This document shows positions 2,067 through 29,581 of a stretch of 46,194 nt of DNA, one piece after another. A program made the position numbers and the translations under genes. Within the stretch, counting starts at the first letter, position 1. Each line of letters opens with the position of its first letter. The notes under the pieces were generated by a model. It had not been told where the DNA came from. It was given only the letters and a program-made list of their open reading frames with translations, and made no database searches. Location: IMG/VR virus record IMGVR_UViG_3300006467_000162. The stretch is one strand, 5' to 3'. This DNA is from a virus.

Positions 2067-3137
2067 ATGTCATGGTTCAAAGCACAGGCTTCCGGTGACC
2101 GGACGGCCAAGGTAGTTATTGACCGGGCCATCGGTTCGGACTGGGCTCCGGACTGGGTGGCCGACTTTACCGGCGAGCAGCCAGCCCGCGAATTCATCGA
2201 GGCAGTTGACGCCCTGGGCGAGCTCGATCGGATTGATCTTGAGATCAACAGCCCAGGTGGTGATGTGGCCTCTGGCGTCCGGATCATGAATTACCTGAAA
2301 AGCCACCAGGCTGAAGTTCACGTAAAGGTCACCGGCATGGCGGCCAGCATCGCTACCGTGATCATGCTGGGCGGTGACACCCGCACCATGGGCGTGGGCA
2401 CCAGCATCATGACCCACCGCGCTTCCACCCTGATGATGGGTTACTACAACCGCAAGGAACTGGAAGATCACGCAACCGGTATCGCTGCCATTGATAGCGC
2501 CATCGTTGATGCATACGTGGCCACCACCGGAAAGACCGCTGAAGAAATCAACGAACTGCTGGACCGTGGCGATGTATACATGGGCGCGGATGAGGCCATT
2601 GAATGGGGCTTCGCCACCGACAAAGACGCCAAGCTGAAAGCAGTTGCCAGTGCCGACCCGGCTCAGTTCCGTCAGCAGATCGAAATGCAGGGCAAGATCC
2701 GGGCGGCTGAAGCCGAAGCGGCTGGCTATAAGGCTCAACTTGAAGCGCAGAACAAATCCCTGGACGAATTGCGTACCGAGCTTGAGGCCTTCAAGAACCC
2801 GGCTGCTGCCAGCGCAGACGAAGTTATTGCGCTGTGTTCTGAGGCTGGCTTCGATTCGCTGGCCGTTTCCATGGCCAAAGAGAAATTGCCGATGGCCACT
2901 GTTCAGGCCCGCCTGAAGCTCGCCGCAGAAGTAAAAGACATTGCAACTGCTGGCGGCCTTGATGCCGATGTGCTGATGAAGCACGTTTCCGACCCCACCC
3001 AGATGCTCCGGACTGCGATCGCAGAGGCGAAAGCCCTCGTTGATCAGGATCTTGAGCATCACCACACGCCCGGCCCGGGCAACAGTAAACAGCCTGACGC
3101 AAGAAAGGCCTATTCCCAACTGAATAACCAAGCGTAA
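2067..3137 (+). CDS. Prohead serine protease (ClpP/S49-like) with C-terminal coiled-coil scaffold-like region
   Basis: Motifs INSPGGDVASG and GMAASIATVIMLGG. The Ala/Glu-rich C-terminal half is as in lambda C/Nu3. GAGGA SD. Confidence 0.85.
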   Translation: MSWFKAQASGDRTAKVVIDRAIGSDWAPDWVADFTGEQPAREFIEAVDALGELDRIDLEINSPGGDVASGVRIMNYLKSHQAEVHVKVTGMAASIATVIMLGGDTRTMGVGTSIMTHRASTLMMGYYNRKELEDHATGIAAIDSAIVDAYVATTGKTAEEINELLDRGDVYMGADEAIEWGFATDKDAKLKAVASADPAQFRQQIEMQGKIRAAEAEAAGYKAQLEAQNKSLDELRTELEAFKNPAAASADEVIALCSEAGFDSLAVSMAKEKLPMATVQARLKLAAEVKDIATAGGLDADVLMKHVSDPTQMLRTAIAEAKALVDQDLEHHHTPGPGNSKQPDARKAYSQLNNQA

Positions 3138-3152
3138 CCCTGGAGGTTAACC

Positions 3153-3488
3153 ATGAAAACTGAAGCAACCCGTGCCGGTGAATTTCTGGTCTCAGAAGCT
3201 AACGGCAAGCGTTCCCGCGAATCCATCACCGTGACCGGCGGCCCTTACCCTGCTGGCCAGGTGCTGGGCAAAATCACCGTTTCCGGAAAGTACACCGCCT
3301 ACGCATCAGGCGCGAGCAACGGCACCGAAACAGCCGCAGCCGTTCTCTGGGATGCCGCTGATGGCTCCGCTGCCGATGTGACCGCTGTTGGCGTTGTTCG
3401 TGATGCAGAAGTTGCCGAAGCAATGCTCACCGGTGAAGACGCAGACGCGATCACCGACCTTGCCGCCATCGGCATCATCACCCGCTAA
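3153..3488 (+). CDS. Head decoration protein (lambda gpD-like)
   Basis: 111 aa, lying between the protease and the major capsid gene. GGAGG SD. N-terminus ...AGEFLVSE... is typical of gpD-like proteins. Confidence 0.6.
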   Translation: MKTEATRAGEFLVSEANGKRSRESITVTGGPYPAGQVLGKITVSGKYTAYASGASNGTETAAAVLWDAADGSAADVTAVGVVRDAEVAEAMLTGEDADAITDLAAIGIITR

Positions 3489-8113: not shown

Positions 8114-10870
8114 ATGCCCGGAGAAACCATGGCCGATAAGCAGAAAACGGTTGAGATTATCTTCGGTGGTGTCGATAAAACCGGCTCCGCCGTCACCTCC
8201 GTAGGCAGAAACCTCGACAGCCTTACCAATCGGGTAGGGGATCTCACTGGCCCACTGGCGGGCATCACAGATAGCATCGTTAAGCTGGACGCTGCTCTGG
8301 CAGCCGCCGCCATCGGTATCACAGGCTACGCGGTAAAGATCGCTGATGACTTTGATACCGCTTTCGGTGAAATCGCCACCCTAATCGGCCAGCCCGCTGA
8401 CAACCTGCGGGACTTCCAAGCCCAGATTCTTGAGTATTCCGAGCGCTCAACGCAGTCACTTGACCAGATCACCAGCGCAACCTATGGCGCGATCTCTGCC
8501 GGCATTGACTACCAGAACTCGCTTGAACTGATCGCCGCCGCCGAGCAGCTTTCAATTGCCGGCCGCGCTGATCTGGGATCAACGACAACTGCACTGGTCA
8601 GCACACTGAATGCCTTCGGCGCTTCTGCAGATGAGGCCGGGGCGTATGCGGATGACTTCTTCACAGCCGTCCAGCTTGGCCAGACTACGATTCCAGAGCT
8701 TTCCGAAACTATTGGCCGGCTCGCACCGCTGGCAGCCGCGGCCGGACTCTCTTTCGAAGAAATGGCCGCTGCCATTGCGACCATCACGGCTGAAACCGGC
8801 ACCAGCACCCCGGAAGCCATCACTGGAATCCGGGCAGCCATCCAGTCACTGCTGAAACCTTCCAAGGAAGCCAGCGATCTTGCCAAAGAACTCGGCATTG
8901 AGTTCAACGCGGCAGCCCTCGAAAGCAAAGGTTTCTCCGGTGTCCTGACTGACGTTGCGGACGCCACTGGTGGCAATACAGAATTATTGGCGAAACTGTT
9001 TGGCTCCGTCGAAGCATTGGCCCCGGTGCTGGCACTGACCGGCAACGCCTCAGAAGCTTTCGCACAGAACCTGGCAAAGTTCGATGACAATGCCGGCGCT
9101 GCCGAACGCGCCTCCCGCGAACTGACAGAAACGCTTTCCGCACTTGGCCAAACCCTCCAGAACAACCTGAACAGCGCTCTGATCGGACTGGGCTCAAACC
9201 TCACCGACGAAACCCGTTCCATCGTTCAATCAATCACCAGCATCTTCAATTCCCTTGGCTCAGAGATCCGCCTGGAAGATGGCGTTTTTGCGCCAATCCT
9301 GAACGGCCTTGAGGGGCTGGCCCAGAACATCGATCAGAAGCTGCAGGTGATTGCTGAGAACTTCCCGGAAGCGCTCTCCGGTATTGATCTGTCTGAACTG
9401 CTCTCCGCATTCGGTGATCTGGGTGATGAGCTTGGCGACCTGTTCACAGGCCTGTTCGGTGATGTGGATCTTTCCACCGTTGAGGGTTTGCAGGATGTGC
9501 TGCAGCAGGTGGTGGATGCTTTCACTGCGCTGGTCAACGTATCGGCCGGAATCGCTGACGGCCTGGAGCCGCTGTTCATCGCCATTGGCGAGGGTATTGA
9601 ACAGTTCCAATCCCTCGATGAGGAAACGAAAAAGTCTGCCGGGCAGATCCTTGGCTTGGCGAAGTCGATCAATACCGTGCTGCCAGCAGTGGGCGGCTTG
9701 GCTGGCGGGCTTGAGTCCATCGGCGGCGGCCTTACAGCACTGGCCGGAGCTCAAGGCTTCAAGGCTGTGATCGGTAATTTGAACAGCATCAAGAGTATTG
9801 CCACCTCTACGGCAGGGAAGGGCGGGCTTCTGGGCCTTGCCCTGACTGGCGGCTATGCCCTGGGCACGTTCATCAACGATTACATTGAGGAAGAATTCGG
9901 CTCGATCGGCTCGAAACTTTACCAGTATTTCAACGCCGATGAGATCAAGGCCCTGGCTGAAAGCTTCGCCCCGGCCACTGGAGAGATCAAAAAGCTTCAG
10001 GATGAAACCGAAGAACTGAGGCAGATCAGCAAACGCTACGACGAAATGAATAAAACCCTTGGCCAGACCATGGGTTACACCACCGAGATCACCGAAGAAC
10101 AGCGGCAGGAGTTCAACCGTTACGCCCAGCAGCTGGTTGATAACGCCAACAAGACAGAGGACTTCACCGGTTCCCAGCGCGGGATCACGGACGCTGTTGA
10201 GGAATTGAATCGGCAGGTGGCGGATAGTGGCGGCGCTCTGGGCGAAGTCTCCAAAACCACCAAAGAGCTGGCGGACAACAACAAAACCCTGCAGCTTGGA
10301 TATGACGAAACCAGCGGAAAGGTGAACAGCTTTTCCGGGACCATCATCAAGAGCAACAAATCACTGGATGATGCCGCCGAGAAAACAAAGAAGGTCATCA
10401 AGGAAACTGAAGCCTACCAGATCAGGCTGCTCGAGCTGGCCAGTGACGAAAAGATCAGCCGCATCCAGGCAACGGTTGAACTGGACATTGCAGAGGTGGA
10501 AGCAGGTGCGGAAAAGGTCAAGGCCATTTCCAAGTCAATCAGCGACACCTTCGCCGGCACAGGGGATCTGATCAGCTCCCTGTTCGGACAGCTCAATGAA
10601 GGCTCGAAGTTCGACCAAGTTGGCATTGCCGCCCAGATCCGACTGGAAAACGAACGCCGGGATGAGGCCCTGAAGATTCAGAAGCGGCTCTCCGAAGCAG
10701 AGATTGAACAGATCAAGGCCAGAACCCGGGCCATCCAGCGCGGTGACGCTGTGCTGAAAGTGGACGGCGCCGGCCTCCAGCCACACCTCGAAGCTTTCAT
10801 GTTCGAAATTCTCAACGCCATTCAGGTTCGCGTGAACGCGGATGGTGAAGAACTCCTTCTGAGGCTGTAA
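8114..10870 (+). CDS. Tail tape measure protein
   Basis: 918 aa with a TP901-type core (ATLIGQP..TSATYGAISAGI..LVSTLNAFG..TTIPELSETIGRLAPLAAAAGLSFEE). The alternative start ATG 8129 has a better SD (GGAGA). Confidence 0.9.
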   Translation: MPGETMADKQKTVEIIFGGVDKTGSAVTSVGRNLDSLTNRVGDLTGPLAGITDSIVKLDAALAAAAIGITGYAVKIADDFDTAFGEIATLIGQPADNLRDFQAQILEYSERSTQSLDQITSATYGAISAGIDYQNSLELIAAAEQLSIAGRADLGSTTTALVSTLNAFGASADEAGAYADDFFTAVQLGQTTIPELSETIGRLAPLAAAAGLSFEEMAAAIATITAETGTSTPEAITGIRAAIQSLLKPSKEASDLAKELGIEFNAAALESKGFSGVLTDVADATGGNTELLAKLFGSVEALAPVLALTGNASEAFAQNLAKFDDNAGAAERASRELTETLSALGQTLQNNLNSALIGLGSNLTDETRSIVQSITSIFNSLGSEIRLEDGVFAPILNGLEGLAQNIDQKLQVIAENFPEALSGIDLSELLSAFGDLGDELGDLFTGLFGDVDLSTVEGLQDVLQQVVDAFTALVNVSAGIADGLEPLFIAIGEGIEQFQSLDEETKKSAGQILGLAKSINTVLPAVGGLAGGLESIGGGLTALAGAQGFKAVIGNLNSIKSIATSTAGKGGLLGLALTGGYALGTFINDYIEEEFGSIGSKLYQYFNADEIKALAESFAPATGEIKKLQDETEELRQISKRYDEMNKTLGQTMGYTTEITEEQRQEFNRYAQQLVDNANKTEDFTGSQRGITDAVEELNRQVADSGGALGEVSKTTKELADNNKTLQLGYDETSGKVNSFSGTIIKSNKSLDDAAEKTKKVIKETEAYQIRLLELASDEKISRIQATVELDIAEVEAGAEKVKAISKSISDTFAGTGDLISSLFGQLNEGSKFDQVGIAAQIRLENERRDEALKIQKRLSEAEIEQIKARTRAIQRGDAVLKVDGAGLQPHLEAFMFEILNAIQVRVNADGEELLLRL

Positions 10871-12792: not shown

Positions 12793-15374
12793 TGTCAAAA
12801 GGCGAAATCATTTCCAGCGAGGGCGCCGGCCTTTATCGTATCCGCCTGAAGTATGCCGTGGAGAAGGTGCAGGAAGAACTGGACCGGATCAACAAGCGAT
12901 TGGCGGAGCTGGCGGTTCTGGTGCCTCAAAAGAAAACCGAAGTGCTGCAGGCCCAGGCAGTGGCCGATGATATCGCCCGGGATATCGACCTGCTGATTGA
13001 TGATTATCGGGACGATCCGGAAACCTTCGGGCCCCAGATCCGTGATCTCCAGGTGAAGCTCACCAAACAGCGCGGAGAGATTGCCCGCCTGACGTATCAG
13101 CTTGACGTTCTGCAGGCTGAACAGCTCTCCCTTCAGAAGCGCCGGGCCCAGCTCGAGAGCGTCCCGGAATCCAAAACCCTGGACGCCTGGTGCGCAGACT
13201 ACACCGAAGAACTGCAGGGCGAAGTCGGGCTGGCGGATGTAAACGATGAAGGCGGCCGGGGCGTAATTATTCAGCCGGGGTTCAGCGGTGAAGCGCGCTA
13301 CAACAAAAGCCGTGACGGCGGGCTGGTCCCTGATGAAGCTCAATCCGCCGCCCAGATCTTCTTCAACTGCGCGATTCTCCCTGGTGTTCAGAAGTGGCAG
13401 CCGAAGTATCGCGTTGGAACGATCACCGATCTTGCCGGGGATGCCTGCAAGCTGACACTGGATGATGCCTTTTCTTCTGCGCAAGATCTTAATATCAACC
13501 AGCTGGCTTCTTACGAATCAGTCCCAATTCAGTATATGGATTGCAACGGCGCGGCCTTCAACGAAGGCGACCGTGTTCTGGTCAGGTTCACCGATTCCGG
13601 CCCGCTGGTCATTGGCTTTGAGAAAGAGCCCGCGCAGTGCTCGGATATCAGCTTTGTGTTCTGGGTTTCCAGATATCAGGTGGTGATGCCGGACAAGGTT
13701 TCGTTTGCCATTGTCCACGGCCAGCCGTATGAGACAGAGCTGGGCGAGATTAACCCGCCGATTGGCGCTGAAGATGGATACGATGGCGTCTGGCGCCTGA
13801 ACTACAAGGCCGGGGCGTACACCATCAACAAGGGCCTGCCGCGGCGCTACGGATACCGGAACTGGATTGGTGATAAGGGTGTGGTTCTCTCATGGGCTGG
13901 CCCGCCTACCAGGATGTATGACGTTCACGGCGTAGGTGAGCCGGATACCAAGGACTACCCGAACCAGCCCGGGGATTTTGCCCACTGGCGCAAGGATTGG
14001 ATGGCGGGCCCGGAAGTGTTCTTGCGCGGTGAAGTGCTCTGGGTTTTTGATGACAACGTGCACGGTGCAGCAGTCTATATGCAGGGTGAGCAGCGCTATC
14101 TGGTGGCCGTGGTCAACTCTGAGAAATACCTGGCCGAATCTGGCGCTGTTGTCCGTGTACCTCTGGATGAGCAATTGCGCCCGGTGCCGGACGCCGAGGA
14201 AGAAGAACTGTTCACGTTTTACAACTCGACTCAGTTGGCGGCCACAACTGACTGGTATTTCAGCCGGGACGGCAGGGAGGCGGTTTGCACCGCCAGGGAC
14301 CGGGGCGGCCTTCTGCCAGAAAAGATCTACCGGATGCGCCTGAACGTCTCAACCGGCGCCAGCTACCTGAAAATGTGGGATAAGGCCGATATCATCGGCA
14401 CGACAACCCTGGACTACACAAACATCCTTTCCGATGACATTGTGCCGGAGGTTATCGAGCGGCGCGTGATCACCAGCCGAAGCTTCACCGAAAACAAGCG
14501 GCCCATCTACTATGAATACATCGGCAACGAGGTGGTGGAAGTAAGCCAGAAACTACCGGCGTATTCTCTCTACCGTGACAGTCACCTGACTGGCAGGCTG
14601 AACACCAACTTCCCGAGGTTAAGTGAAGGGGTCTCAGCGTTTTCGGAAACCCTGACCAGTGAAGGACCAACGGAAATTGTCACCAGTGAGGGAAAGGTTC
14701 TGGCCACCGCGCCATTCACCTGGAGCGCTAATTCAGAATCAACCACTTCGCTGCAGTTTTCAGATGACGGCCAGGCTACACCGAGCGGCACGCTCTCAGA
14801 ATCAATCAACGAATCGTTTTCCTCCACCGATAACGAACTGAAGATTGTGGCGATCGATGCCCGGTTCAATTTCTGCGCGGTGTGGTGCCACTACTTCACT
14901 GCTGACTACACCACCAGCGCAGATGATCCCTATGACACCAACGATGGATTTAATGAATGGGTGGTCAGTTTCTCCGGATCCAACAGCGATTCGGAAGAAG
15001 TGAATATCTTCATGGACGGTGTGAAGCAGAAGTCACTGCAGATTCAGGGTGATTCGTTCTCAGGGAATAGCACCTACACCCAGACGGCGGCGCTCTCAAT
15101 CCCGCAGGGTTTCGGCGTAGACAGCTTCACGACCACCAGCAGCCTGGGTGATACCGTCAACACGGAGTATGGCGCCCGGGGTTTGCTATGGGGCTCTGGC
15201 GTGAAGGCCAACGGCCAGAAGGCACTTTCCATGGTTTACTATGAGCCGGAGCTGGCCAACGATCGTTCGCCTGTGTGGTATAGCCAGATGGACGGTTACG
15301 ACAACGTGATTGCGGATCTTCTGGAGCAGGATGAAGAAGATGGTTTTGTGCTCGATCGGCTGGCCATCCAGTAA
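12792..15374 (+). CDS. Tail fibre / host-specificity protein (putative)
   Basis: 860 aa, the last and largest tail gene. It has an N-terminal coiled coil (residues about 20-125) and is followed by a hairpin and attP. Confidence 0.6.
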   Translation: MSKGEIISSEGAGLYRIRLKYAVEKVQEELDRINKRLAELAVLVPQKKTEVLQAQAVADDIARDIDLLIDDYRDDPETFGPQIRDLQVKLTKQRGEIARLTYQLDVLQAEQLSLQKRRAQLESVPESKTLDAWCADYTEELQGEVGLADVNDEGGRGVIIQPGFSGEARYNKSRDGGLVPDEAQSAAQIFFNCAILPGVQKWQPKYRVGTITDLAGDACKLTLDDAFSSAQDLNINQLASYESVPIQYMDCNGAAFNEGDRVLVRFTDSGPLVIGFEKEPAQCSDISFVFWVSRYQVVMPDKVSFAIVHGQPYETELGEINPPIGAEDGYDGVWRLNYKAGAYTINKGLPRRYGYRNWIGDKGVVLSWAGPPTRMYDVHGVGEPDTKDYPNQPGDFAHWRKDWMAGPEVFLRGEVLWVFDDNVHGAAVYMQGEQRYLVAVVNSEKYLAESGAVVRVPLDEQLRPVPDAEEEELFTFYNSTQLAATTDWYFSRDGREAVCTARDRGGLLPEKIYRMRLNVSTGASYLKMWDKADIIGTTTLDYTNILSDDIVPEVIERRVITSRSFTENKRPIYYEYIGNEVVEVSQKLPAYSLYRDSHLTGRLNTNFPRLSEGVSAFSETLTSEGPTEIVTSEGKVLATAPFTWSANSESTTSLQFSDDGQATPSGTLSESINESFSSTDNELKIVAIDARFNFCAVWCHYFTADYTTSADDPYDTNDGFNEWVVSFSGSNSDSEEVNIFMDGVKQKSLQIQGDSFSGNSTYTQTAALSIPQGFGVDSFTTTSSLGDTVNTEYGARGLLWGSGVKANGQKALSMVYYEPELANDRSPVWYSQMDGYDNVIADLLEQDEEDGFVLDRLAIQ

Positions 15375-15909: not shown

Positions 15910-16218
15910 CTAAGCATCGGAAAAGGTTCCTAGTTCCAGTTGAAGCGTATCGCCAGGCCTTAGATCAAGGTGTTCTCCTTTTCCATCAACCAGTTCTATT
16001 GCGACTTCAGCCTTTGATTCGAAAAGCAGTGCATTCTCCCGAACCATTAGAACCCCATGAAGCTTTTGCGGGCCCTGAATAAGCGTGATCGGTAAGTTGC
16101 CAATCAACGTTTTCCCCGCCTCATCAAAGACAAAGAAGCCATCAGATTTCGGTTCCAATGTAACGCTGGTTTTGTGCAAGCCCGCCAAAAGCTCTGCATA
16201 GTTAAATTTTACGCTCAT
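15910..16218 (-). CDS. Hypothetical protein (cargo between int and attP)
   Basis: 102-aa ORF whose ATG overlaps the int stop (ATGA). Confidence 0.55.
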   Translation of the reverse strand: MSVKFNYAELLAGLHKTSVTLEPKSDGFFVFDEAGKTLIGNLPITLIQGPQKLHGVLMVRENALLFESKAEVAIELVDGKGEHLDLRPGDTLQLELGTFSDA

Positions 16219-17357
16219 TTCCCAAAAACCCCGCTCACATCCAACTCCGCTTTAACACGAACCCACTGCTGTTCGTGCCCCTTCTGGTAATGCTCTGTCA
16301 TCTTCTCGTCAGCGTGCGCCATCAGCGGCTGCACATACCCCTCGTTATCAAAGCCCTGTTTCTTGTATAGCCAGGAGCCCAGCGCCCGGACTTCGTGGAA
16401 GGTTGGCCGCTTCTCCCTGGGCACATCGTCAAATAGACCTGTCTCATCCCGCACGCGCCTGAACTCTGAGCTGAAATGGTTCGGGGTAAGCTGTGACCAG
16501 TGCTGGCGGTCTTTGGCCTTGTTGCGCCTCTCTGGATCTCGGTGAACGATAAACGGGCTGGCGATATCGGAGCGCCTGGCCCGGGAAACAATCTTCGCCA
16601 ACCGCGGGCTTTCGATAATCAGGAAAGCGTGCTCATGTTTTTTGACCTTCTCACGAACTACCTGGAGCGTCCCGGCCTTTTCATCGTAATCTGCAAAGCG
16701 CATGTTGATCACTTCCATCCGGCCCTGCAGTGTAACCAGGCCCAGCTCCATGGCAACCTGCAGCCATTCCGGGGCAATCGCATAAATGGCTTTGAACTGT
16801 TCCAGGGTGAGCCGCTGGCGTTGCTTCTCATAGCCTGACTTCGCATAGGTGGCCCCGGCCGGGTTGGGAATGTCGGACGGATACAGCCCTTTCATCTGCG
16901 CAAACGTGAACAGATCGGTGAGGGTGGTCCGGTGCTTGATGTAGCTGTCCCGCTGGAAGTTGTCATCCAGATATTCAGCCACCGCTTTTACATCGAACGA
17001 TTCCACCAGCATCTGGCCCAGATCCTTTTCAAATCGATTCAGCCTGTAGCCAATCAGCTTCACGGTGCTCGGCGCCAGGTTCTGATCCGGAAGATATTCC
17101 TTCCGATACCGGCCAATCAGGTGGGCCATTGTTTGCTCCGCCGTCCCCAGCACCTGGCCAATGCGATCCGGGTCCTTCAGCAGGATGGCGTTCAGCTGGC
17201 GGGCATCAGCGATTGCCGTGCCCTTGACCGTGCCCAGGCTGTGAAACCGGCCATTGTCCGGACGCCTGTACCGATAATAAGTGACCGCCCCGACCTTGTT
17301 GGTGTATAGGTTCGGGGGAAGATCCGCATTCCTTCGAAGCCGTTTCCGTGGTGCCAT
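16215..17357 (-). CDS. int: Tyrosine integrase, lambda Int type with N-terminal arm-binding domain
   Basis: LPPNLYTNKVGAVTYYRYRRP resembles the lambda Int N-domain. C-terminal HEVRALGSWLY...HYQ carries the catalytic-type motifs. ATG 17357 follows AAGGA and the stop of the upstream ORF. Confidence 0.9.
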   Translation of the reverse strand: MAPRKRLRRNADLPPNLYTNKVGAVTYYRYRRPDNGRFHSLGTVKGTAIADARQLNAILLKDPDRIGQVLGTAEQTMAHLIGRYRKEYLPDQNLAPSTVKLIGYRLNRFEKDLGQMLVESFDVKAVAEYLDDNFQRDSYIKHRTTLTDLFTFAQMKGLYPSDIPNPAGATYAKSGYEKQRQRLTLEQFKAIYAIAPEWLQVAMELGLVTLQGRMEVINMRFADYDEKAGTLQVVREKVKKHEHAFLIIESPRLAKIVSRARRSDIASPFIVHRDPERRNKAKDRQHWSQLTPNHFSSEFRRVRDETGLFDDVPREKRPTFHEVRALGSWLYKKQGFDNEGYVQPLMAHADEKMTEHYQKGHEQQWVRVKAELDVSGVFGK

Positions 17358-17358
17358 A

Positions 17359-17625
17359 TTATCCTTCCGGGCTTTCCGCGACTCGATCGCTGCAGGCTGT
17401 TTCATCCCGATACATCCGGAAGAATCCATATTCCCGCGGATAGTCCTTCCATGATTCGTGAACCCCGCCGCCCATCACTTCCGCCCGGTGAAGCTCGGCA
17501 ACCACAGGGCCATGGCTACGCCTGCCGGCCAGCCAGAGAGCCAGGGCATCTTCTCGACTGAGGCGCCCCTGTAACTTCAGTTCGCGGAAATGCTTCTCAA
17601 AAAGTTCCTGCTCTGCTTTGTTCAA
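17359..17625 (-). CDS. Hypothetical protein between xis and int
   Basis: 88 aa. TTG start lies 5 nt after a perfect AGGAGG. Confidence 0.55.
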   Translation of the reverse strand: MNKAEQELFEKHFRELKLQGRLSREDALALWLAGRRSHGPVVAELHRAEVMGGGVHESWKDYPREYGFFRMYRDETACSDRVAESPEG

Positions 17626-23496: not shown

Positions 23497-24168
23497 TTAT
23501 GACGGTTGTTTCAAGTTTTGTTGAACTACCGAGATCATAACGCCAAGAATGTCGGGCTCATGGCCCAGATCAACGGGCCGGAAATCGGTGTTTGGTGGAA
23601 TAATCTGATAGGTGTCCCGCTTTGCCAGCGCCCCGCTGACGAACGATTCATTGATATAAGCCACCACCAGATCGTTGGGCCCCGGGCGTTCAAAGGGATT
23701 CACCACTACATACATACCTCTAAGTACGCGATCCGATAGCGAGTTATCTTCAACCTGTATTGCGAAACACCCTGGATTCATTTTCCCGGTAGCCAAGACG
23801 GTGGGGAGGTCTGAAGTTTGGAGCTGGCCGTTGGCGTAATCCTTCCATTGCTCGGCATTCACCAGGGGGATGTTGTGCAATTCGACCTGCTGCAGCCTGC
23901 CGTCCTGATCGATGCCCTGGACTTCCCGCATTGGCCCTGTGCCATTCCGAAGCCATTCCGGCCTGACACGATAATACAGTGCCAGCTGCTCGATTTTTTG
24001 TAATGGAATCACATCACCAGTGAACCACTTCCGAACCCCGGCCACGGACATATCAAAGTGTCTGGCCAGATCCGAATACATTCCATAGTGGTGCAGGCCA
24101 GCCGCTTTAGCGGCTTCATTAAGGCGCGATGAGAACGCTTTCTTCTGTAAATCTGTATCAAGTTTCAT
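23497..24168 (-). CDS. cI: CI-like repressor (N-terminal HTH plus S24 LexA-like C-terminal domain)
   Basis: HTH: YSDLARHFDMSVAGVRKWF. C-domain: FAIQVEDNSLSDRVLRGMYVVV...VSGALAKR parallels the S24 GDSM...K motifs. Divergent from the cro-like gene. Confidence 0.8.
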   Translation of the reverse strand: MKLDTDLQKKAFSSRLNEAAKAAGLHHYGMYSDLARHFDMSVAGVRKWFTGDVIPLQKIEQLALYYRVRPEWLRNGTGPMREVQGIDQDGRLQQVELHNIPLVNAEQWKDYANGQLQTSDLPTVLATGKMNPGCFAIQVEDNSLSDRVLRGMYVVVNPFERPGPNDLVVAYINESFVSGALAKRDTYQIIPPNTDFRPVDLGHEPDILGVMISVVQQNLKQPS

Positions 24169-25118: not shown

Positions 25119-25591
25119 GCGATTACGGCTTTGTCTATGTGATGCACAACTTTGCCATGAACGGCGTTTATAAGATCGGCTTCACAACTAGGTCAGTTTT
25201 TAAGCGGGCGGAAGAGCTATCCGCAGGAGCTGGCGTAGCTGACGATTATTCGCCGGCTTACTATCTGGAAACCTCGGCGGTTCGTGAGCTTGAGTGCATG
25301 GTTCATGCAGATCTTGTTGAGTACCGGATTAACCCGGCGCGCGAGTTTTTTCGATGCCCGCTGAGCATGGCCATCTGGAGTATTCGGAAGAATACCGAAG
25401 ATGGTCTTGCAGAATATATTTCTGATATGGCGCTTGAGGCGCTAAATCCCGGCCAAGTCGATCCCCACAACCCTTTATGGTTCGAAGCATCACTATATCA
25501 CCCTGACCAAGTTGCAGTTTTTTCCCAGGGTCAAGCGCGAACAAATAGCCGCACAAAACTCTTTCAAATTGATGCATCTGGAGGTCAGTGA
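25115..25591 (+). CDS. T5orf172 / GIY-YIG-like domain protein
   Basis: GFVYVMHN..VYKIGFTTRSVFKRAEELS...HADLVEYRINPAREFF matches the T5orf172 (MUG113-like) pattern. Confidence 0.6.
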   Translation: MSDYGFVYVMHNFAMNGVYKIGFTTRSVFKRAEELSAGAGVADDYSPAYYLETSAVRELECMVHADLVEYRINPAREFFRCPLSMAIWSIRKNTEDGLAEYISDMALEALNPGQVDPHNPLWFEASLYHPDQVAVFSQGQARTNSRTKLFQIDASGGQ

Positions 25592-26412
25592 TGGCTAGAG
25601 CAAGAAATATCAAGCCCGGTTTTTGGCGCAATGAGGCGCTGGTTGAGCTTCCGTTTCAGGCGAGGCTTCTATTTATCGGCCTTTGGAATATGGCGGATCG
25701 AGAAGGTCGGCTCGAAAACAGGCCAAAGAAGATCAAGTTGGAAATTTTTCCGGCTGACGACGTTGATGTAAGCCTTGAAATTACGAGGCTTTCCGAGGCT
25801 GGCCTCGTAACGGTTTACCGCAACGAGAACAAAGACTGCATTGAAGTGGTCAACTTTAAAAAACATCAGAATCCGCATCACCGCGAACCGGCGAGTGAAC
25901 TGCCTGGCCCGCCAGAAAAAGGCCCGCAACCCCCTGAAAAGAAAGAAGCCTCGGAAAGCCCCGGACAAGCCCAGGGCCAGCCTGAGTATAGCCGTGCTGA
26001 TTCCGGATTCCTGAATCCTGATTCCGGATTCCTGAATCCTGAAAAACAACAAGGCTCCGCATCTTCGGATGCCTCGCCAGCCGAATCTGAATCACCGGCA
26101 GGCGTCAGAGATTTCCCCACCAAGGACGAAAAGCCCTTCCAGCTACAGGAATCTTTTGTCACCGAGCTGAAATCGACCTATCCACGGATTGACGTTGAAT
26201 ACCAGCTACAGAAAGCCCGCCTTTGGCTAATCGCAAACCCAGCCAGGCAGAAAACCAACCGGGGCATGACGCGATTCTTGAACAACTGGATGAGCAATCA
26301 GAAGCCGACCGCTGAGATCCACCCGATGCATAGCCGGCACAACGGCTTCGATGAGCGCGACTACAGCGAAGGATTGATTGAGGGGGTGTCCGATGACGCA
26401 GCCAATTTCTGA
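25591..26412 (+). CDS. Replication initiator / replisome organiser (lambda O analogue, putative)
   Basis: N-terminal ARNIKPGFWRNE..RLLFIGLWNMADREGRLE is the conserved phage replication-protein pattern. A Pro/Glu/Ser linker contains DNA iterons. It precedes the DnaC-like gene. GTG 25588 is an alternative start. Confidence 0.55.
   Translation: MARARNIKPGFWRNEALVELPFQARLLFIGLWNMADREGRLENRPKKIKLEIFPADDVDVSLEITRLSEAGLVTVYRNENKDCIEVVNFKKHQNPHHREPASELPGPPEKGPQPPEKKEASESPGQAQGQPEYSRADSGFLNPDSGFLNPEKQQGSASSDASPAESESPAGVRDFPTKDEKPFQLQESFVTELKSTYPRIDVEYQLQKARLWLIANPARQKTNRGMTRFLNNWMSNQKPTAEIHPMHSRHNGFDERDYSEGLIEGVSDDAANF
25997..26043. repeat. Tandem 21-bp repeat (2.2 copies), each containing the palindrome GGATTC-CT-GAATCC; candidate origin iterons
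   Basis: ctgattccggattcctgaatc is repeated exactly and followed by the A-rich gaaaaacaacaa. It encodes DSGFLNP twice in the initiator linker. Confidence 0.5.
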
Positions 26413-27226
26413 GCAGATTGAGAGCCTGGAAGATCGCCTAAACCGGAAGAACGGGCTTACCGACAAGCGCAAAGGCGAATGTGAGATTCATGGAGAGTTC
26501 GAAGATAAGCATTACTCCGGCGAAGGAAACATTGTTACGCCTGGGTGGGCTGGTTGCCCGACTTGCAAGAAGTTGCAGTGGGATGAAGAAGCCAGGCAGC
26601 AGGTCATCAAAGAAAACGCAGAGCGTGAGGTGCGGCGGATCAATTCAATGGTTGCTGATTCTGGCATACCTTCCCGCTTTCGGAAAAAGTCTTTCGATAA
26701 CTTTGAGGCAGTAAACCAAAAAGCAGCCAGCCATCTTGCCAAGGTTCGGGAATACGCGGATCTGATCTCAAAGGACGACCACGGCGGTCGCTGCCTGCTT
26801 ATGCTTGGCAAGGTTGGAAACGGGAAAACTCATCTGGCTTGCGCTCTGATCGAAAGCGTTATCCGGGAGACTCGCCAGCCATCGTACTACTGGACCTTCT
26901 CTGAGCTTGTCCGGTACGTGAAAGCGTCGTTTTCCAAAGGCGCGGAGCATTCCGAAGAAGATGCGTACAAGGATTTCGCCAAGGGCCGGTTGGCCGTTCT
27001 TGATGAAGTCGGTATGCAGAACTTCACGGAGTTCGAGCAAGCCGTGGCGTATGAAGCCATTAACGCCCGCTACCTGGCCGAGCGCCCCACCGTCCTGATT
27101 ACCAACCTGCAAGCCAAGGATCTGCCTCTGTGCGTCGGTGAGCGAGTCGTTGACCGTCTCCGCGAGGGTGGTGGCCGCGCCCTGGACTTTGATTGGAAAT
27201 CCTACCGGGTTGGGGGTGCGTCATGA
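26393..27226 (+). CDS. DnaC/IstB-like AAA+ helicase loader with N-terminal Zn-ribbon
   Basis: Walker A LGKVGNGKTHLA, Walker B LAVLDEVG, N-terminal CEIHGEF...CPTCKK. ATG follows GAGGGGG. Confidence 0.8.
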   Translation: MTQPISEQIESLEDRLNRKNGLTDKRKGECEIHGEFEDKHYSGEGNIVTPGWAGCPTCKKLQWDEEARQQVIKENAEREVRRINSMVADSGIPSRFRKKSFDNFEAVNQKAASHLAKVREYADLISKDDHGGRCLLMLGKVGNGKTHLACALIESVIRETRQPSYYWTFSELVRYVKASFSKGAEHSEEDAYKDFAKGRLAVLDEVGMQNFTEFEQAVAYEAINARYLAERPTVLITNLQAKDLPLCVGERVVDRLREGGGRALDFDWKSYRVGGAS

Positions 27227-27540
27227 GCCTGCATGAAATCTGCACTCTGTACCTGAAAGGCCGGAAGCTGCGCAGTCAGATCATTGAGCTTTCAAATCGC
27301 AGTCTGGCCAACAAGTTTGCACGCGGTGAAAAGACTATCGCCAAGGTGGCGAACGGGATGCCCTGCAATGTGCCTGAGGATGAGCGCCGCCTGATACTGG
27401 CCTGCATTGCCGAGCGCGACCGGCTGAAATTGAAAGCCTCAGAGCTTGGCCTGAACCGCCTGTGCAAACAGCACGGCTTTTCCCATCACACCGTTCTGCA
27501 ACAACTGGAGCGCATGGGTGAAAGGGAGGTTGCCGCATGA
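27223..27540 (+). CDS. Hypothetical protein
   Basis: Start at MSLHEICT (ATGA overlap with the dnaC-like stop). 105 aa. Confidence 0.5.
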   Translation: MSLHEICTLYLKGRKLRSQIIELSNRSLANKFARGEKTIAKVANGMPCNVPEDERRLILACIAERDRLKLKASELGLNRLCKQHGFSHHTVLQQLERMGEREVAA

Positions 27541-27638
27541 GAACCCCAGGCCAACACACCAAACTCGGCAAAGTCCTCCGCGCCATGTACCAGGCCGGTC
27601 CCATGACGGCAGGCGAGATCCGCAAGGAGGCGGCATGA
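27537..27638 (+). CDS. 33-codon ORF (MRTPGQHTKLGKVLRAMYQAGPMTAGEIRKEAA)
   Basis: ATGA overlaps at both ends (27537-40 and 27635-38). Too short for the supplied track. Confidence 0.35.
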   Translation: MRTPGQHTKLGKVLRAMYQAGPMTAGEIRKEAA

Positions 27639-28426
27639 CATGGCTATTCAGCAAAGCGCTCATGGACTCCGTGAACTTGCACTCTTCGCCGGAGCCGGTG
27701 GAGGCATTCTCGGAGGCCACCTACTCGGATGGCGAACCATCTGCGCAGTGGAGCGTGATGCCTACTCCGCAAGGGTTCTGGCGCAACGACAAAATGATGG
27801 ATGCCTCCCGACTTTCCCAATTTGGTCCGACGTTACGACTTTTGACGGAACAGCATGGCGAGGCCGTGTTGACGTTATTTCTGGAGGGTTTCCCTGTCAG
27901 GACATATCCAAATGCGGACCAGGTGCCGGTATTAGCGGAGCAAGATCCGGCCTTTGGTCTCAGTTCACTCGAATCATTGGCGAAGTTCGACCCGGAGACG
28001 TCTACGTGGAGAACTCCCCAGTTCTCACTTCTCGGGGATTGGGAGTTGTACTCGGAGACTTGGCCGCGCTGGGGTTTGATGCGAAATGGGGAGTGCTGGG
28101 CTCGCGAGACCTCGGCGGTGATCACGAAAGATTCAGGGTATGGATCTGTGCCAACGCCAACGGCGAGCATGGGCAGCCACGGAGTAGCTTGGGCACGGGC
28201 GAGAACTGGAGAGCACAGGTCAAATCTGGCGGATTATCTTGCCTGGAGGCATTTGCAAGAAGGCGGAGAAGAGACACCTGGCCTGGCGGTAAACCCAAGT
28301 TATGCCGAATTTCTCATGAACAGGCCTTTGGGGTGGACCGACTTAGAGCCATTGGAAACGGACAAGATGCGGTTGTGGCTGCAGCAGCATTCACCGAACT
28401 TTCGGGAAGGGAGTAACGCCGCATGA
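27635..28426 (+). CDS. 263-codon ORF in an alternative frame, completely overlapping the methyltransferase gene
   Basis: No stop across 792 nt. ATG lies 4 nt after AAGGAGG. ATGA coupling at both ends. Product contains SETWPRWGLMRNG, VPTPTA and NPSYAEFLMNRPLGWTD. Confidence 0.45.
   Translation: MTWLFSKALMDSVNLHSSPEPVEAFSEATYSDGEPSAQWSVMPTPQGFWRNDKMMDASRLSQFGPTLRLLTEQHGEAVLTLFLEGFPVRTYPNADQVPVLAEQDPAFGLSSLESLAKFDPETSTWRTPQFSLLGDWELYSETWPRWGLMRNGECWARETSAVITKDSGYGSVPTPTASMGSHGVAWARARTGEHRSNLADYLAWRHLQEGGEETPGLAVNPSYAEFLMNRPLGWTDLEPLETDKMRLWLQQHSPNFREGSNAA
27640..28416 (+). CDS. dcm: DNA (cytosine-5) methyltransferase, short-TRD phage type
   Basis: Motifs in order: LFAGAGGG (I), GGFPCQDIS (IV), VENSP (VI), HERFRVWICA (VIII), DRLRAIGNGQ (X). 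Confidence 0.85.
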   Translation: MAIQQSAHGLRELALFAGAGGGILGGHLLGWRTICAVERDAYSARVLAQRQNDGCLPTFPIWSDVTTFDGTAWRGRVDVISGGFPCQDISKCGPGAGISGARSGLWSQFTRIIGEVRPGDVYVENSPVLTSRGLGVVLGDLAALGFDAKWGVLGSRDLGGDHERFRVWICANANGEHGQPRSSLGTGENWRAQVKSGGLSCLEAFARRRRRDTWPGGKPKLCRISHEQAFGVDRLRAIGNGQDAVVAAAAFTELSGRE

Positions 28427-28611
28427 CCTGCACCTACTGCCAGCGAGGCATTCCACTACACAACGGCATTCACTGTGGCGAGTTCTTCATGGAGCGCTGC
28501 ACCAGAGAGCTTGAGCTTGTGCCGAAAGAGCATGAGCCGAGGGTGCGTGAGACATGGTATCGGCCTGAACTTCGGACTGATGTGCCTTTTGTGTGTGGAG
28601 GTGAGCGATGA
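28423..28611 (+). CDS. Small Cys-rich protein
   Basis: 62 aa, CxxC...C...C pattern. ATGA-coupled to the frame-2 ORF. Confidence 0.45.
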   Translation: MTCTYCQRGIPLHNGIHCGEFFMERCTRELELVPKEHEPRVRETWYRPELRTDVPFVCGGER

Positions 28612-28853
28612 ATATTTACTGCTTTAAGTTTGAGTGCGAATGTCCGAACAACCAACAGCGCATTGCGTACCGAGTCGAGATCCGCTCCGCGCAGACCATC
28701 ATGGTTGAGAACATCGCGGGATTCTTCCTGAGCTTCACAGCTGCCTACCAAGAGGACATTGCAGACCAGTCTTATCAGCGCTTTGGAGGGCAGCAAACGA
28801 TCAGCGCTCATCACCACGGCGTCGATATTGAGACTCGGAGGGGCTGGCAATGA
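28608..28853 (+). CDS. Small protein, possible T-fold/QueF-like (weak)
   Basis: 81 aa. FECECPNNQQ...VEIRS...VENIAGFFLSF loosely parallels QueF (CPxTxQPD...ESKSLKLYLxSF). Confidence 0.3.
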   Translation: MNIYCFKFECECPNNQQRIAYRVEIRSAQTIMVENIAGFFLSFTAAYQEDIADQSYQRFGGQQTISAHHHGVDIETRRGWQ

Positions 28854-29581
28854 TTCATTACCACGGATTGCCAGTTACTCCAGCCACAGCCGCCGCAAAG
28901 TTGCTACAGGGCCGCCATGCCTTTGTGTCCTTCATGCACTCGGACCAATTGGAGATTGCCGCCGAGCTTTGCCAGAGCTTCGCGGTGGATAACGGCGCCT
29001 TCACTGCCTGGAAGTCCGGCGAGGCAATCACCGACTGGACGCCATTCTATCAATGGGTAGACGGCCTGAAGTCACATCCCGGCTTTGACTTTGCTGTCAT
29101 TCCGGACGTTATCGACGGTGACGAAGTTGCCAACGATGACCTGATCCGCGAATGGCCACACGAAAAGCACTACTCCGCGCCAGTTTGGCACATGCACGAA
29201 TCCATTGAGCGCTTGTTCGACTTGGCTCACTTCTGGCCGCGTGTCTGCATTGGCAGCTCTGGAGCATTCTCGCAGATTGGCAATGCTCGCTGGTGGGCGC
29301 GAATCAGTGAAGCGCTTAATGCCATCTGTGATGAGCATGGCCGCCCCGTTACTCGATTGCATGGCCTCCGGATGTTGGACCCTGCTGTGTTCACCAAGTT
29401 GCCGTTTGCCAGCGCAGACAGCACGAACGTCGGGCGCAACATTGGTATTGATTCAGCCTGGAGAGGAACTTATCAGCCGCCAAGCAAAGAATGGAGAGCT
29501 GAGTTAATGGCCGCTCGAATCGAATCACACAACAGCGCAGAGCAGTGGAGCCGCGCACCGATTCAGGAGGCTTTAATATGA
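28850..29581 (+). CDS. DpdA-like (TGT-superfamily) DNA transglycosylase candidate
   Basis: Ordered motifs VDNGAF, CIGSSG, LHGLRML and SADSTNVGRN parallel phage DpdA (DSGAF, GVGSVC, LHGFG, SxDSxAW). From memory, not searched. Confidence 0.4.
   Translation: MIHYHGLPVTPATAAAKLLQGRHAFVSFMHSDQLEIAAELCQSFAVDNGAFTAWKSGEAITDWTPFYQWVDGLKSHPGFDFAVIPDVIDGDEVANDDLIREWPHEKHYSAPVWHMHESIERLFDLAHFWPRVCIGSSGAFSQIGNARWWARISEALNAICDEHGRPVTRLHGLRMLDPAVFTKLPFASADSTNVGRNIGIDSAWRGTYQPPSKEWRAELMAARIESHNSAEQWSRAPIQEALI

Follow-up and report, generated by a model that had tools for sequence, protein, structure and literature searches.

In the single-chain C5-cytosine methyltransferase M.HhaI, the small domain consists of the variable region and motif IX. 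M.EcoHK31I, from Escherichia coli HK31, recognizes YGGCCR and has a 176-amino-acid beta chain encoded inside the gene for its 309-amino-acid alpha chain, and M.AquI, from Agmenellum quadruplicatum, recognizes CYCGRG. The small domain makes all of the specific DNA contacts (PMC3404938). In M.EcoHK31I, motif IX resides on beta, which is encoded entirely in another frame within alpha, while alpha contains motifs I–VIII and X together with what is predicted to be the target-recognition domain (TRD); activity needs both chains (PMC2836561, PMC3404938). M.AquI also comprises two polypeptides, with motifs I–VIII on one and the rest of the variable region plus motifs IX–X on the smaller (PMC3404938). 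Natural heterodimeric methylases have already served as scaffolds for targeted methylation (PMC2836561). Among other embedded genes, one of the lambda pair Rz/Rz1 lies out of frame within the other on the same strand, and the two products cooperate (PMC9409062). Here we describe a methylase gene in a virus sequence of 46,194 nucleotides (IMG/VR record IMGVR_UViG_3300006467_000162; 'the window' refers to this whole stretch), in which two open reading frames (ORFs), A and B, occupy the same DNA. From sequence comparisons, we conclude that positions 27635–28426 probably specify, in two frames, both polypeptides of a C5-cytosine methyltransferase resembling M.EcoHK31I in type, in which the two chains would assemble and B would give the specificity.

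Reading the ORFs of the window placed frame A between an ATG at 27640 and a TAA at 28414–28416 (258 amino acids), and frame B between an ATG at 27635 and a TGA at 28424–28426 (263 amino acids), with B remaining open upstream to a GTG at 27518 (302 amino acids). Frame B is +1 relative to frame A and shares ~780–790 nucleotides with it, such that position 3 of an A codon is position 2 of a B codon, and position 3 of a B codon is position 1 of an A codon. One Shine-Dalgarno (SD) sequence, AAGGAGG (27624–27630, plus strand), ends 4 nucleotides before the B ATG and 9 nucleotides before the A ATG and is thereby positioned for both starts. An earlier reading of the DNA letters (the original prediction) had described these two frames, the stop-free run of B across the methylase and back to 27518, and two ATGs 5 nucleotides apart behind a single AAGGAGG, all of which we confirmed; the next-longest same-strand out-of-frame ORFs that it listed also exist and are shorter (9351–9770, 139 amino acids; 13936–14343, 135 amino acids). 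As in M.EcoHK31I, B lies in an alternative frame within the A gene, both in the window and in all 165 loci described below, a likeness that we judged from the published description of the layout of that enzyme. Unlike in M.EcoHK31I, the overlap is co-extensive, with B (263 amino acids) starting 5 nucleotides before A (258 amino acids). The arrangement also differs from that of lambda Rz/Rz1, in that the frames are co-extensive over ~780 nucleotides and appear to encode two domains of an elsewhere-single enzyme rather than separate proteins.

Because loci must not be picked for having B called, we fetched homologous loci using frame-A peptide patterns only, which yielded 160 loci (80 from viral contigs and 80 from species-representative genomes) that, together with four phage records and the window, made a set of 165. 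The loci spanned 39–68% GC; the genomes came from Pantoea, Acinetobacter, Pseudomonas, Patescibacteria, Planctomycetota, Anaerolineales, Bacteroidota, Acidobacteriota, Fibrobacteria and others, and the unique sequences fell into 33 clusters at >30% nucleotide distance. A B homologue was found at offset +1 in 165 out of 165 loci, with 227–374 open codons; the open frames of A and B overlapped over a median of 766 nucleotides, and the third frame contained ~15 stops per locus. The search for frame-B stops in homologues that the original prediction had proposed returned none. When we shuffled synonymous codons of A in the 160 loci, retaining the A protein and its codon usage, ~4.1 stops were expected in the B frame, and the probability of having none was ~0.01 per locus. 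For the window, none of 200 shuffles was stop-free in frame B, with 5.4 stops expected, and the third frame had 13 stops. We rejected an artefact of GC content or codon bias, given that B was open down to 39% GC, that ~4 stops were expected and that the loci were diverse.

A single nonsense codon was found in A in five loci (L103, L137, L159, L160 and L162), and in B in none of the loci. Two of the A stops stand at conserved arginines, and B is intact in these five loci; the stops may reflect errors in sequencing or a recent loss of A, or may hint that B has been kept alone. In another locus (L040, at about 2290–2400) the frames swap near motif IX, with the A frame ending in ...DWVEWLMGWPIGWTDLKPLAMGKFQKWQEAHLKY and B ending early, which points to an indel; this may be an error of assembly, or motif IX may have become naturally fused to the catalytic chain.

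We then examined selection on each frame with our own implementation of an overlapping-frame Nei–Gojobori-style (OLGenie-like) count, applied to 54 phylogenetically independent pairs at 3–30% divergence, in which dNN/dNS reports selection on B and dNN/dSN selection on A. Changes that were silent in A and altered B were 0.40 times (0.34–0.46) as frequent as changes silent in both frames (pSN/pSS), a result that bears on the depressed synonymous variation in frame A for which the original prediction had proposed a test. By contrast, orthologous flanking genes of the same pairs, assigned a fictitious +1 frame, gave a dNN/dNS of 0.75 (0.60–0.96) and a dSN/dSS of 1.26 (0.77–2.26). Over B residues 1–177, dNN/dNS was 0.49 (0.44–0.54) and dNN/dSN was 0.17; over the variable region (B178–218), the values were 0.27 and 1.12 (0.98–1.28), indicating that the amino-acid sequence of A is unconstrained there; and over B219–255 they were 0.28 and 0.33. 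The entropy of codon positions followed the same division, the A wobble position being the most variable over B1–177 (which lies over A motifs I–VIII) and the B wobble position the most variable over B178–242, and thus the dominant frame changes after motif VIII. Together, these substitution patterns indicate that purifying selection acts on both frames, with A dominating over motifs I–VIII and B after motif VIII, and on this comparative evidence we regard it as close to certain that both frames are coding and under selection.

Between 27672 and 28103 the window has 67–77% nucleotide identity to phages of Pseudomonas, Salmonella, Acinetobacter, Klebsiella, Ralstonia, Vibrio and Microcystis, which seems high for proteins that are ~55% identical and is what constraint at all three codon positions would be expected to produce.

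The frame A ORF (27640–28416, plus strand) encodes the large-domain subunit of a C5-cytosine methyltransferase. The strings that the original prediction had recognized are all present and in order: LFAGAGGG (27682–27705), GGFPCQDIS (27883–27909), VENSP (28006–28020), HERFRVWICA (28123–28152) and DRLRAIGNGQ (28336–28365), corresponding to motifs I (FxGxG), IV (PCQ), VI (ENV/ENS), VIII (RxR) and X (GN) in the canonical order. Residues C86, Q87, E124, N125, R164, R166, N240 and Q242 were invariant among 80 homologues. A matched PF00145 at 85.7 bits (cut-off 22; E 5.2e-24), but with A residues 13–177 covering only profile positions 4–166 of 324. The match to TIGR00675 (54.5 bits, under the cut-off of 100.65) covered profile positions 4–161 of 329, and matches to the PADLOC methylase models were likewise confined to the first half of the profile; phrog_363 matched residues 6–254 (3.8e-54). 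An AlphaFold2 model of A built with 80 homologues (pTM 0.69) was confident at residues 9–176 (27664–28167, plus strand; motifs I, IV, VI and VIII, block mean pLDDT mostly 66–94, dNN/dSN 0.17) and at residues 232–258 (28333–28413, plus strand; motif X, DRLRAIGNGQ, plus a C-terminal helix, block pLDDT ~80). The linker between them, residues 177–231 (28168–28332, plus strand), was predicted to be disordered (pLDDT <50), its frame being kept open while its amino-acid sequence is unconstrained (dNN/dSN 1.12 [0.98–1.28]). In a Foldseek search the top matches of the A model were M.HhaI and M.HaeIII (E ~1e-11, rmsd 2.4–3.0 Å), with ~170 of the ~327 target residues aligned. The variable/target-recognition region and motif IX, which stand between motifs VIII and X, were absent from the A chain, in that none of the Pfam, NCBIfam and PADLOC profiles aligned at residues 177–231. 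Thus, A resembles the single-chain enzymes M.HhaI and M.HaeIII (PF00145) in its motifs I, IV, VI, VIII and X and its large-domain fold, and differs from them in that its catalytic chain has no small-domain sequence, which appears instead to come from the +1 frame of the same DNA. As modelled, A is a large domain with a tether replacing the usual variable region, followed by a motif-X helix.

The frame B ORF (27635–28426, plus strand), our proposed small-domain subunit, comprises an N-terminal extension, a PTPxA-containing variable/recognition region, a motif IX-like segment and a C-terminal helix. The proposed target-recognition region, residues 123–180 (28001–28174, plus strand), lies over A motifs VI–VIII and contains STWRTPQFSLL, ETWPRWGLMRNGECW (two predicted beta-hairpins) and the PTPxA module GSVPTPTASMG; these motifs recur in the second polypeptide of split actinophage methylases, and PTPxA also occurs in frame in the single-chain protein P0147. 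Residues 219–236 (28289–28342, plus strand) form the motif IX-like segment VNPSYAEFLMNRPLGWTD, the final codons of which overlap the first codons of A motif X, and here too the B wobble is the most variable position. When the B family was aligned to P0147 with hhalign, B170–236 (GSVPTPTAS ... VNPSYAEFLMNRPLGWTD) matched the stretch running from PTPxA to motif IX (probability 96.9, E 1.8e-10), with VNPSYAEFLMNRPLGWTD paired with RLSPAFAEWMMGWPAGWVT in a part of P0147 that PF00145 (DNA_methylase) covers (profile positions 126–315 of 324); the resemblance to motif IX that the original prediction had seen in the last frame-B string was thereby supported. The conserved C-terminal helix, LEPLETDKMRLWLQQHS (residues 237–253; 28343–28393, plus strand), is encoded by the same bases as A motif X; P239, L240, W248 and H252 are nearly invariant, and both frames are constrained (dNN/dNS 0.28, dNN/dSN 0.33). 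Among PHROGs, B matched phrog_1008 'DNA methyltransferase' (9e-16) and phrog_26627. Because A is without a variable region and motif IX, and because those are the parts that make up the small domain elsewhere, B would supply what A lacks. This division, with motifs I–VIII and X on A and motif IX on B (assigned through the P0147 alignment, the direct alignment to motif IX of M.HhaI not being significant), is like that of M.EcoHK31I. Unlike in that enzyme, in which the predicted TRD is on alpha, the window places its recognition-type motifs on B, with only a linker in A, and B has an extra N-terminal segment of ~110 residues.

This N-terminal extension (residues 1–110; 27635–27964, plus strand) lies over A motifs I–IV, contains MTWLFSKAL..., VMPTPQGFWRNDKMM and EGFPVRTYP, and was mostly modelled with low confidence. 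Its beginning is strongly conserved: M1, W3, L4, F5 and S6 are nearly invariant among homologues (N-terminus M[ST]W[LH][FY]S), and dNN/dNS was 0.44 over B1–60 and 0.66 over B61–120, compared with 0.75 in the control. In the window MTWLFSKAL lies over the non-conserved A sequence MAIQQSAHG, and thus conservation of A cannot account for the B N-terminus. ATG is the start codon of B in 138 of 139 loci, and an SD-like tetramer stands 3–13 nucleotides upstream of this ATG in 149 of 158. In 119 loci the A start is 4 nucleotides upstream of the B ATG, within the conserved context [AGT]TGAATGAG[CT]TGGCT, and in the window and eight other loci the B ATG comes first, 5 nucleotides ahead of that of A. 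Between motifs VIII and X, the A linker spans a median of 72 codons (range 43–157) and is stop-free in 136 of 138 loci, when B-synonymous resampling predicts 2.6 stops and a probability of 0.11 of having none; it is open even where the PTPxA modules of B multiply (L031, L145 and L161).

Relatives of the locus occur in overlapped, split and single-chain forms. A tblastn search with B against phage records found 124 genomes, including those of 48 Mycobacterium, 17 Arthrobacter, 10 Streptomyces and 7 Porphyromonas phages as well as cyanophages, and the match was always beneath genes annotated as methylases; the same dual coding is present in ShroomBoi (Mycobacterium), a Porphyromonas phage and Synechococcus phage S-H1. 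In the split form, represented by Shida gp6/gp5, Vash gp32/33 and Mordred gp80/81 (L166, L167 and L168), the first gene encodes motifs I–VIII and then stops, and the second, in the +1 frame, begins over motifs VI–VIII of the first and carries in one chain the hairpin motif TWPxxGxMRNG, LLPTPxAxD modules, and then NPAFAEWMMGWPDGWVT and IGNGVCPQQA, which are motifs IX and X. Mordred gp81 (from an Arthrobacter phage; 1117–2655 of L168), annotated as 'hypothetical protein', is such a second methylase polypeptide, with ~10 LLPTPxAxD modules; the number of PTPxA modules thus varies from one in the window through three to four in L031, L145 and L161 to ~10 in gp81. In these actinophages a single frameshift is possible in place of two chains. 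Among homologues of Shida gp5, P0148 and P0154 have motifs I–VIII, IX and X in one frame, match PF00145 and have the same motif IX, and in P0147 a single frame holds motifs VII–VIII, two PTPxA modules and motifs IX and X. The motif content of the split pairs is like that of M.AquI, from which they differ in that the second chain starts inside the first gene, over motifs VI–VIII. The window is unlike M.AquI in having motif X on the catalytic chain and a gene overlap of whole length instead of one at the junction.

These comparisons suggest a mechanism in which ribosomes drawn by one SD sequence would choose between two starts 4–5 nucleotides apart, so that both chains would come from one message. 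Frame A would yield the catalytic large domain, with motifs I–VIII, a flexible tether and the motif-X helix that closes the fold, and frame B, read one base along the same mRNA, would yield the variable/target-recognition region, with its beta-hairpins and PTPxA module, and motif IX, in addition to the ~110-residue extension over A motifs I–IV. A and B would then come together as the active enzyme, its sequence specificity being provided by B, and the phage would probably use it as an orphan methylase protecting its own DNA from restriction. Physical assembly, the dependence of activity on B, and this biological role are what we infer from sequence and homology.

Several results weigh against this interpretation. 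AlphaFold2 modelled B alone poorly, even with 88 homologues (pLDDT 59, pTM 0.29); a Foldseek search of the PDB with this model returned no match, as would be expected of a poor model, and a profile of the B family gave no meaningful match to PDB sequences. Pfam did not recognize motif IX in B. Grafting the segment of B from PTPxA to motif IX between motifs VIII and X of A did not lengthen the PF00145 match, and a reversed-segment control behaved alike, a chimera test that was uninformative because Pfam also misses motif X of A and motifs IX–X of Shida gp5. When the B family was aligned with hhalign to M.HhaI (a sequence of which residues 16–134 agree with PDB alignments), motif IX was picked at the right position but without significance (E 0.23). 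With respect to the selection analysis, the statistics came from our own implementation, the control set was small (16 ORF pairs), and basing the alignment on B proteins may have biased the variable region towards B. Finally, the proposed division of labour leaves residues 1–110 of B unexplained.

In an alternative reading, B is a real, selected overprinted protein that has some other job, as a regulator, an anti-defence factor or a DNA-binding accessory, while A works alone or with a host factor. The 110 N-terminal residues of B have no relatives outside the family and a low-confidence model, no library (Pfam, NCBIfam or PADLOC) names the B family, and B is intact in the five loci in which A has a nonsense codon, as this alternative would allow. 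However, the C-terminal half of B shares homology with true methylases over their variable region and motif IX, exactly the parts that A is without, the B-like chain of the split relatives carries motif X as well, and B never occurs without A in the 165 loci, and we therefore think this alternative unlikely. An even less probable possibility is that frame B is a product of chance, in which constraint on the A motifs, GC content and codon bias would generate an ORF that gene finders call but that yields no useful product. The original prediction had cautioned that the A motifs force conserved strings in B, and this caution was valid in itself, with GGFPCQ read as EGFPVR and ICANAN as VPTPTA; long third-frame or antisense ORFs also occur in GC-rich genes, such as that at 2070–3131 (minus strand) of the window. 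The forced strings nonetheless fail to explain the data, because, beyond motif VIII, variation is greatest at the B wobble, over a stretch in which the A sequence is unconstrained. Moreover, B is uninterrupted in all 165 loci, even at 39% GC, when ~4 stops would be expected, its pSN/pSS of 0.40 compares with a control dSN/dSS of 1.26, and it is homologous to non-overlapped coding sequence in Shida gp5. The comparative data, from loci that are far from near-identical (33 clusters at >30% nucleotide distance), thus contradict an accidental origin, which we consider scarcely credible.

A different arrangement would make one polypeptide from the locus, with translation starting in A, shifting to B after motif VIII for the variable region and motif IX, and returning to A for motif X, the split relatives shifting once. 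The resulting order, motifs I–VIII from A, variable region and IX from B, and X from A, is that of a canonical single-chain enzyme, the dominant frame does change after motif VIII, and the actinophage split forms would need only the single shift allowed for above. But such a protein would have no need of the A linker, which is open in 136 of 138 loci, or of the first 110 codons of B, which are open, constrained and supplied with an ATG and an SD sequence. In addition, motifs IX and X overlap at the junction (the codons for GWTD in B and VDRL in A), and a clean hand-over between frames would therefore lose part of one motif, and two shifts would be required, one of them +1. The open linker and the separate ATG, SD sequence and conserved N-terminus of B together argue against a single frameshifted polypeptide, leaving it very unlikely. 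Of the explanations that the original prediction had put forward, frame switching is thus disfavoured, an overprinted gene is true as a description, with both frames under purifying selection, and the two-polypeptide methyltransferase is the best supported, by the first-half profile matches of A, the A model, and the alignment of B170–236 to P0147.

A query with B returned 2352 proteins at 90% clustering, with no Pfam domain among the 120 listed, and a B profile matched 30,967 representatives of 50% clusters at E ≤ 1e-3, 17,372 at ≤ 1e-10 and 5,405 at ≤ 1e-30, numbers that bear out the mention of B-like database proteins in the original prediction. Some of the weak matches may be to single-chain enzymes, at their variable region and motif IX. 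A-type proteins, which carry the NCBI name 'DNA cytosine methyltransferase', number >8000. By blastn, the family is uncommon among complete E. coli genomes, being present in 4 of 5426, and it also occurs on some plasmids. We lean slightly towards the view that the oddity known from M.EcoHK31I is a general and largely unrecognized architecture of phage and prophage orphan C5 methyltransferases, kept in many bacterial phyla and represented by ~31,000 B clusters (at 50% identity). The catalytic and specificity domains of one enzyme would then be encoded in two frames of the same ~0.8 kb, with specificity in the ORF that reference annotation usually omits, and the ~110-residue N-terminal part of B would have been created by overprinting on motifs I–IV. 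Among the conserved same-strand dual-coding regions known from prokaryotic viruses, such regions would rank with the longest and the most widespread. The layout was known from one E. coli enzyme that is very rarely cited, none of the papers available to our literature search described this dual-frame phage methylase family, and its breadth across thousands of phages is the surprise. With ~780 nucleotides under simultaneous purifying selection in two frames, and with single-chain, split and fully overlapped relatives all available for comparison, the family offers a natural system for studying how overlapping genes originate and how two proteins share one sequence.

Annotation pipelines keep one of the two frames, and the other half of the gene is routinely missed. 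In the JGI annotation of the window contig (L171, JGI 3300010430 Ga0118733_100004456, 2501–3292), frame B is called (263 amino acids, no Pfam) and frame A is omitted, so the contig shows no methylase; correspondingly, the exact B protein was present in the protein collection (P0001) and the exact A protein was absent. PGAP and most GenBank records keep frame A: among GenBank phages, S9-5 and ABMM1 annotate A, and phPA-G and Gerry annotate B as 'hypothetical protein'. B itself matched nothing in the Pfam, NCBIfam and PADLOC profile libraries, and B-type ORFs thus form a very large family that has no model in any of the three; among its long members (419–548 amino acids) we found no informative domain fusions. 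If B carries the specificity, target predictions made from the annotated protein alone use the wrong chain, and expressing the annotated ORF alone may yield an inactive enzyme. In Salmonella phage S9-5 (L002), the dual-coded cytosine methylase has an adenine methylase gene (899–1492) directly upstream, the two being coupled in translation, and phages of this kind therefore have orphan methylases in tandem.

The window, which comes from a JGI metagenome, is a temperate phage or prophage of the lambdoid type, with recognized genes for an integrase (16215–17429, minus strand), a CI-like repressor (23497–24168, minus strand), a replication initiator (25588–26412) and a DnaC-like loader (26378–27226), the last of which flanks the methylase. 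Immediately upstream of the methylase is a 33-codon ORF (27537–27638, plus strand), which JGI annotates as a gene on the source contig and which had no match in the PHROG search; its TGA overlaps the B ATG (ATGA, 27635–27638). Immediately downstream is a 62-codon ORF (28423–28611, plus strand), without a PHROG or PADLOC match, the ATG of which overlaps the B TGA (ATGA, 28423–28426). The original prediction had proposed that B, and not A, fits the chain of ATGA-coupled genes, which is correct for the window but does not extend to the family, in which a downstream ATG overlaps the B stop in 45 and the A stop in 55 of the 165 loci. Unlike M.EcoHK31I, the window methylase appears to be a phage orphan, with no recognized endonuclease adjoining it: no nuclease was matched by PADLOC or PHROG within ~1.5 kb, where small unannotated ORFs could still hide one. 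A gene for a DpdA-like queuine tRNA-ribosyltransferase homologue (28850–29581, plus strand; 243 amino acids; phrog_887 'queuine tRNA-ribosyltransferase', 4.6e-75) lies 0.4 kb downstream of the methylase and suggests that this early-gene cluster has a second DNA-modification function, of the 7-deazaguanine type; at 29.5–34.7 kb no further gene of the queuosine pathway was recognized, and genes for an HNH endonuclease and a RusA-like resolvase lie farther downstream. Elsewhere in the window, the antisense ORF at 2070–3131 (353 codons, minus strand) covers the entire head maturation protease gene (2067–3137, plus strand; phrog_94, 6.2e-55) and is probably a shadow ORF of GC content and codon bias.

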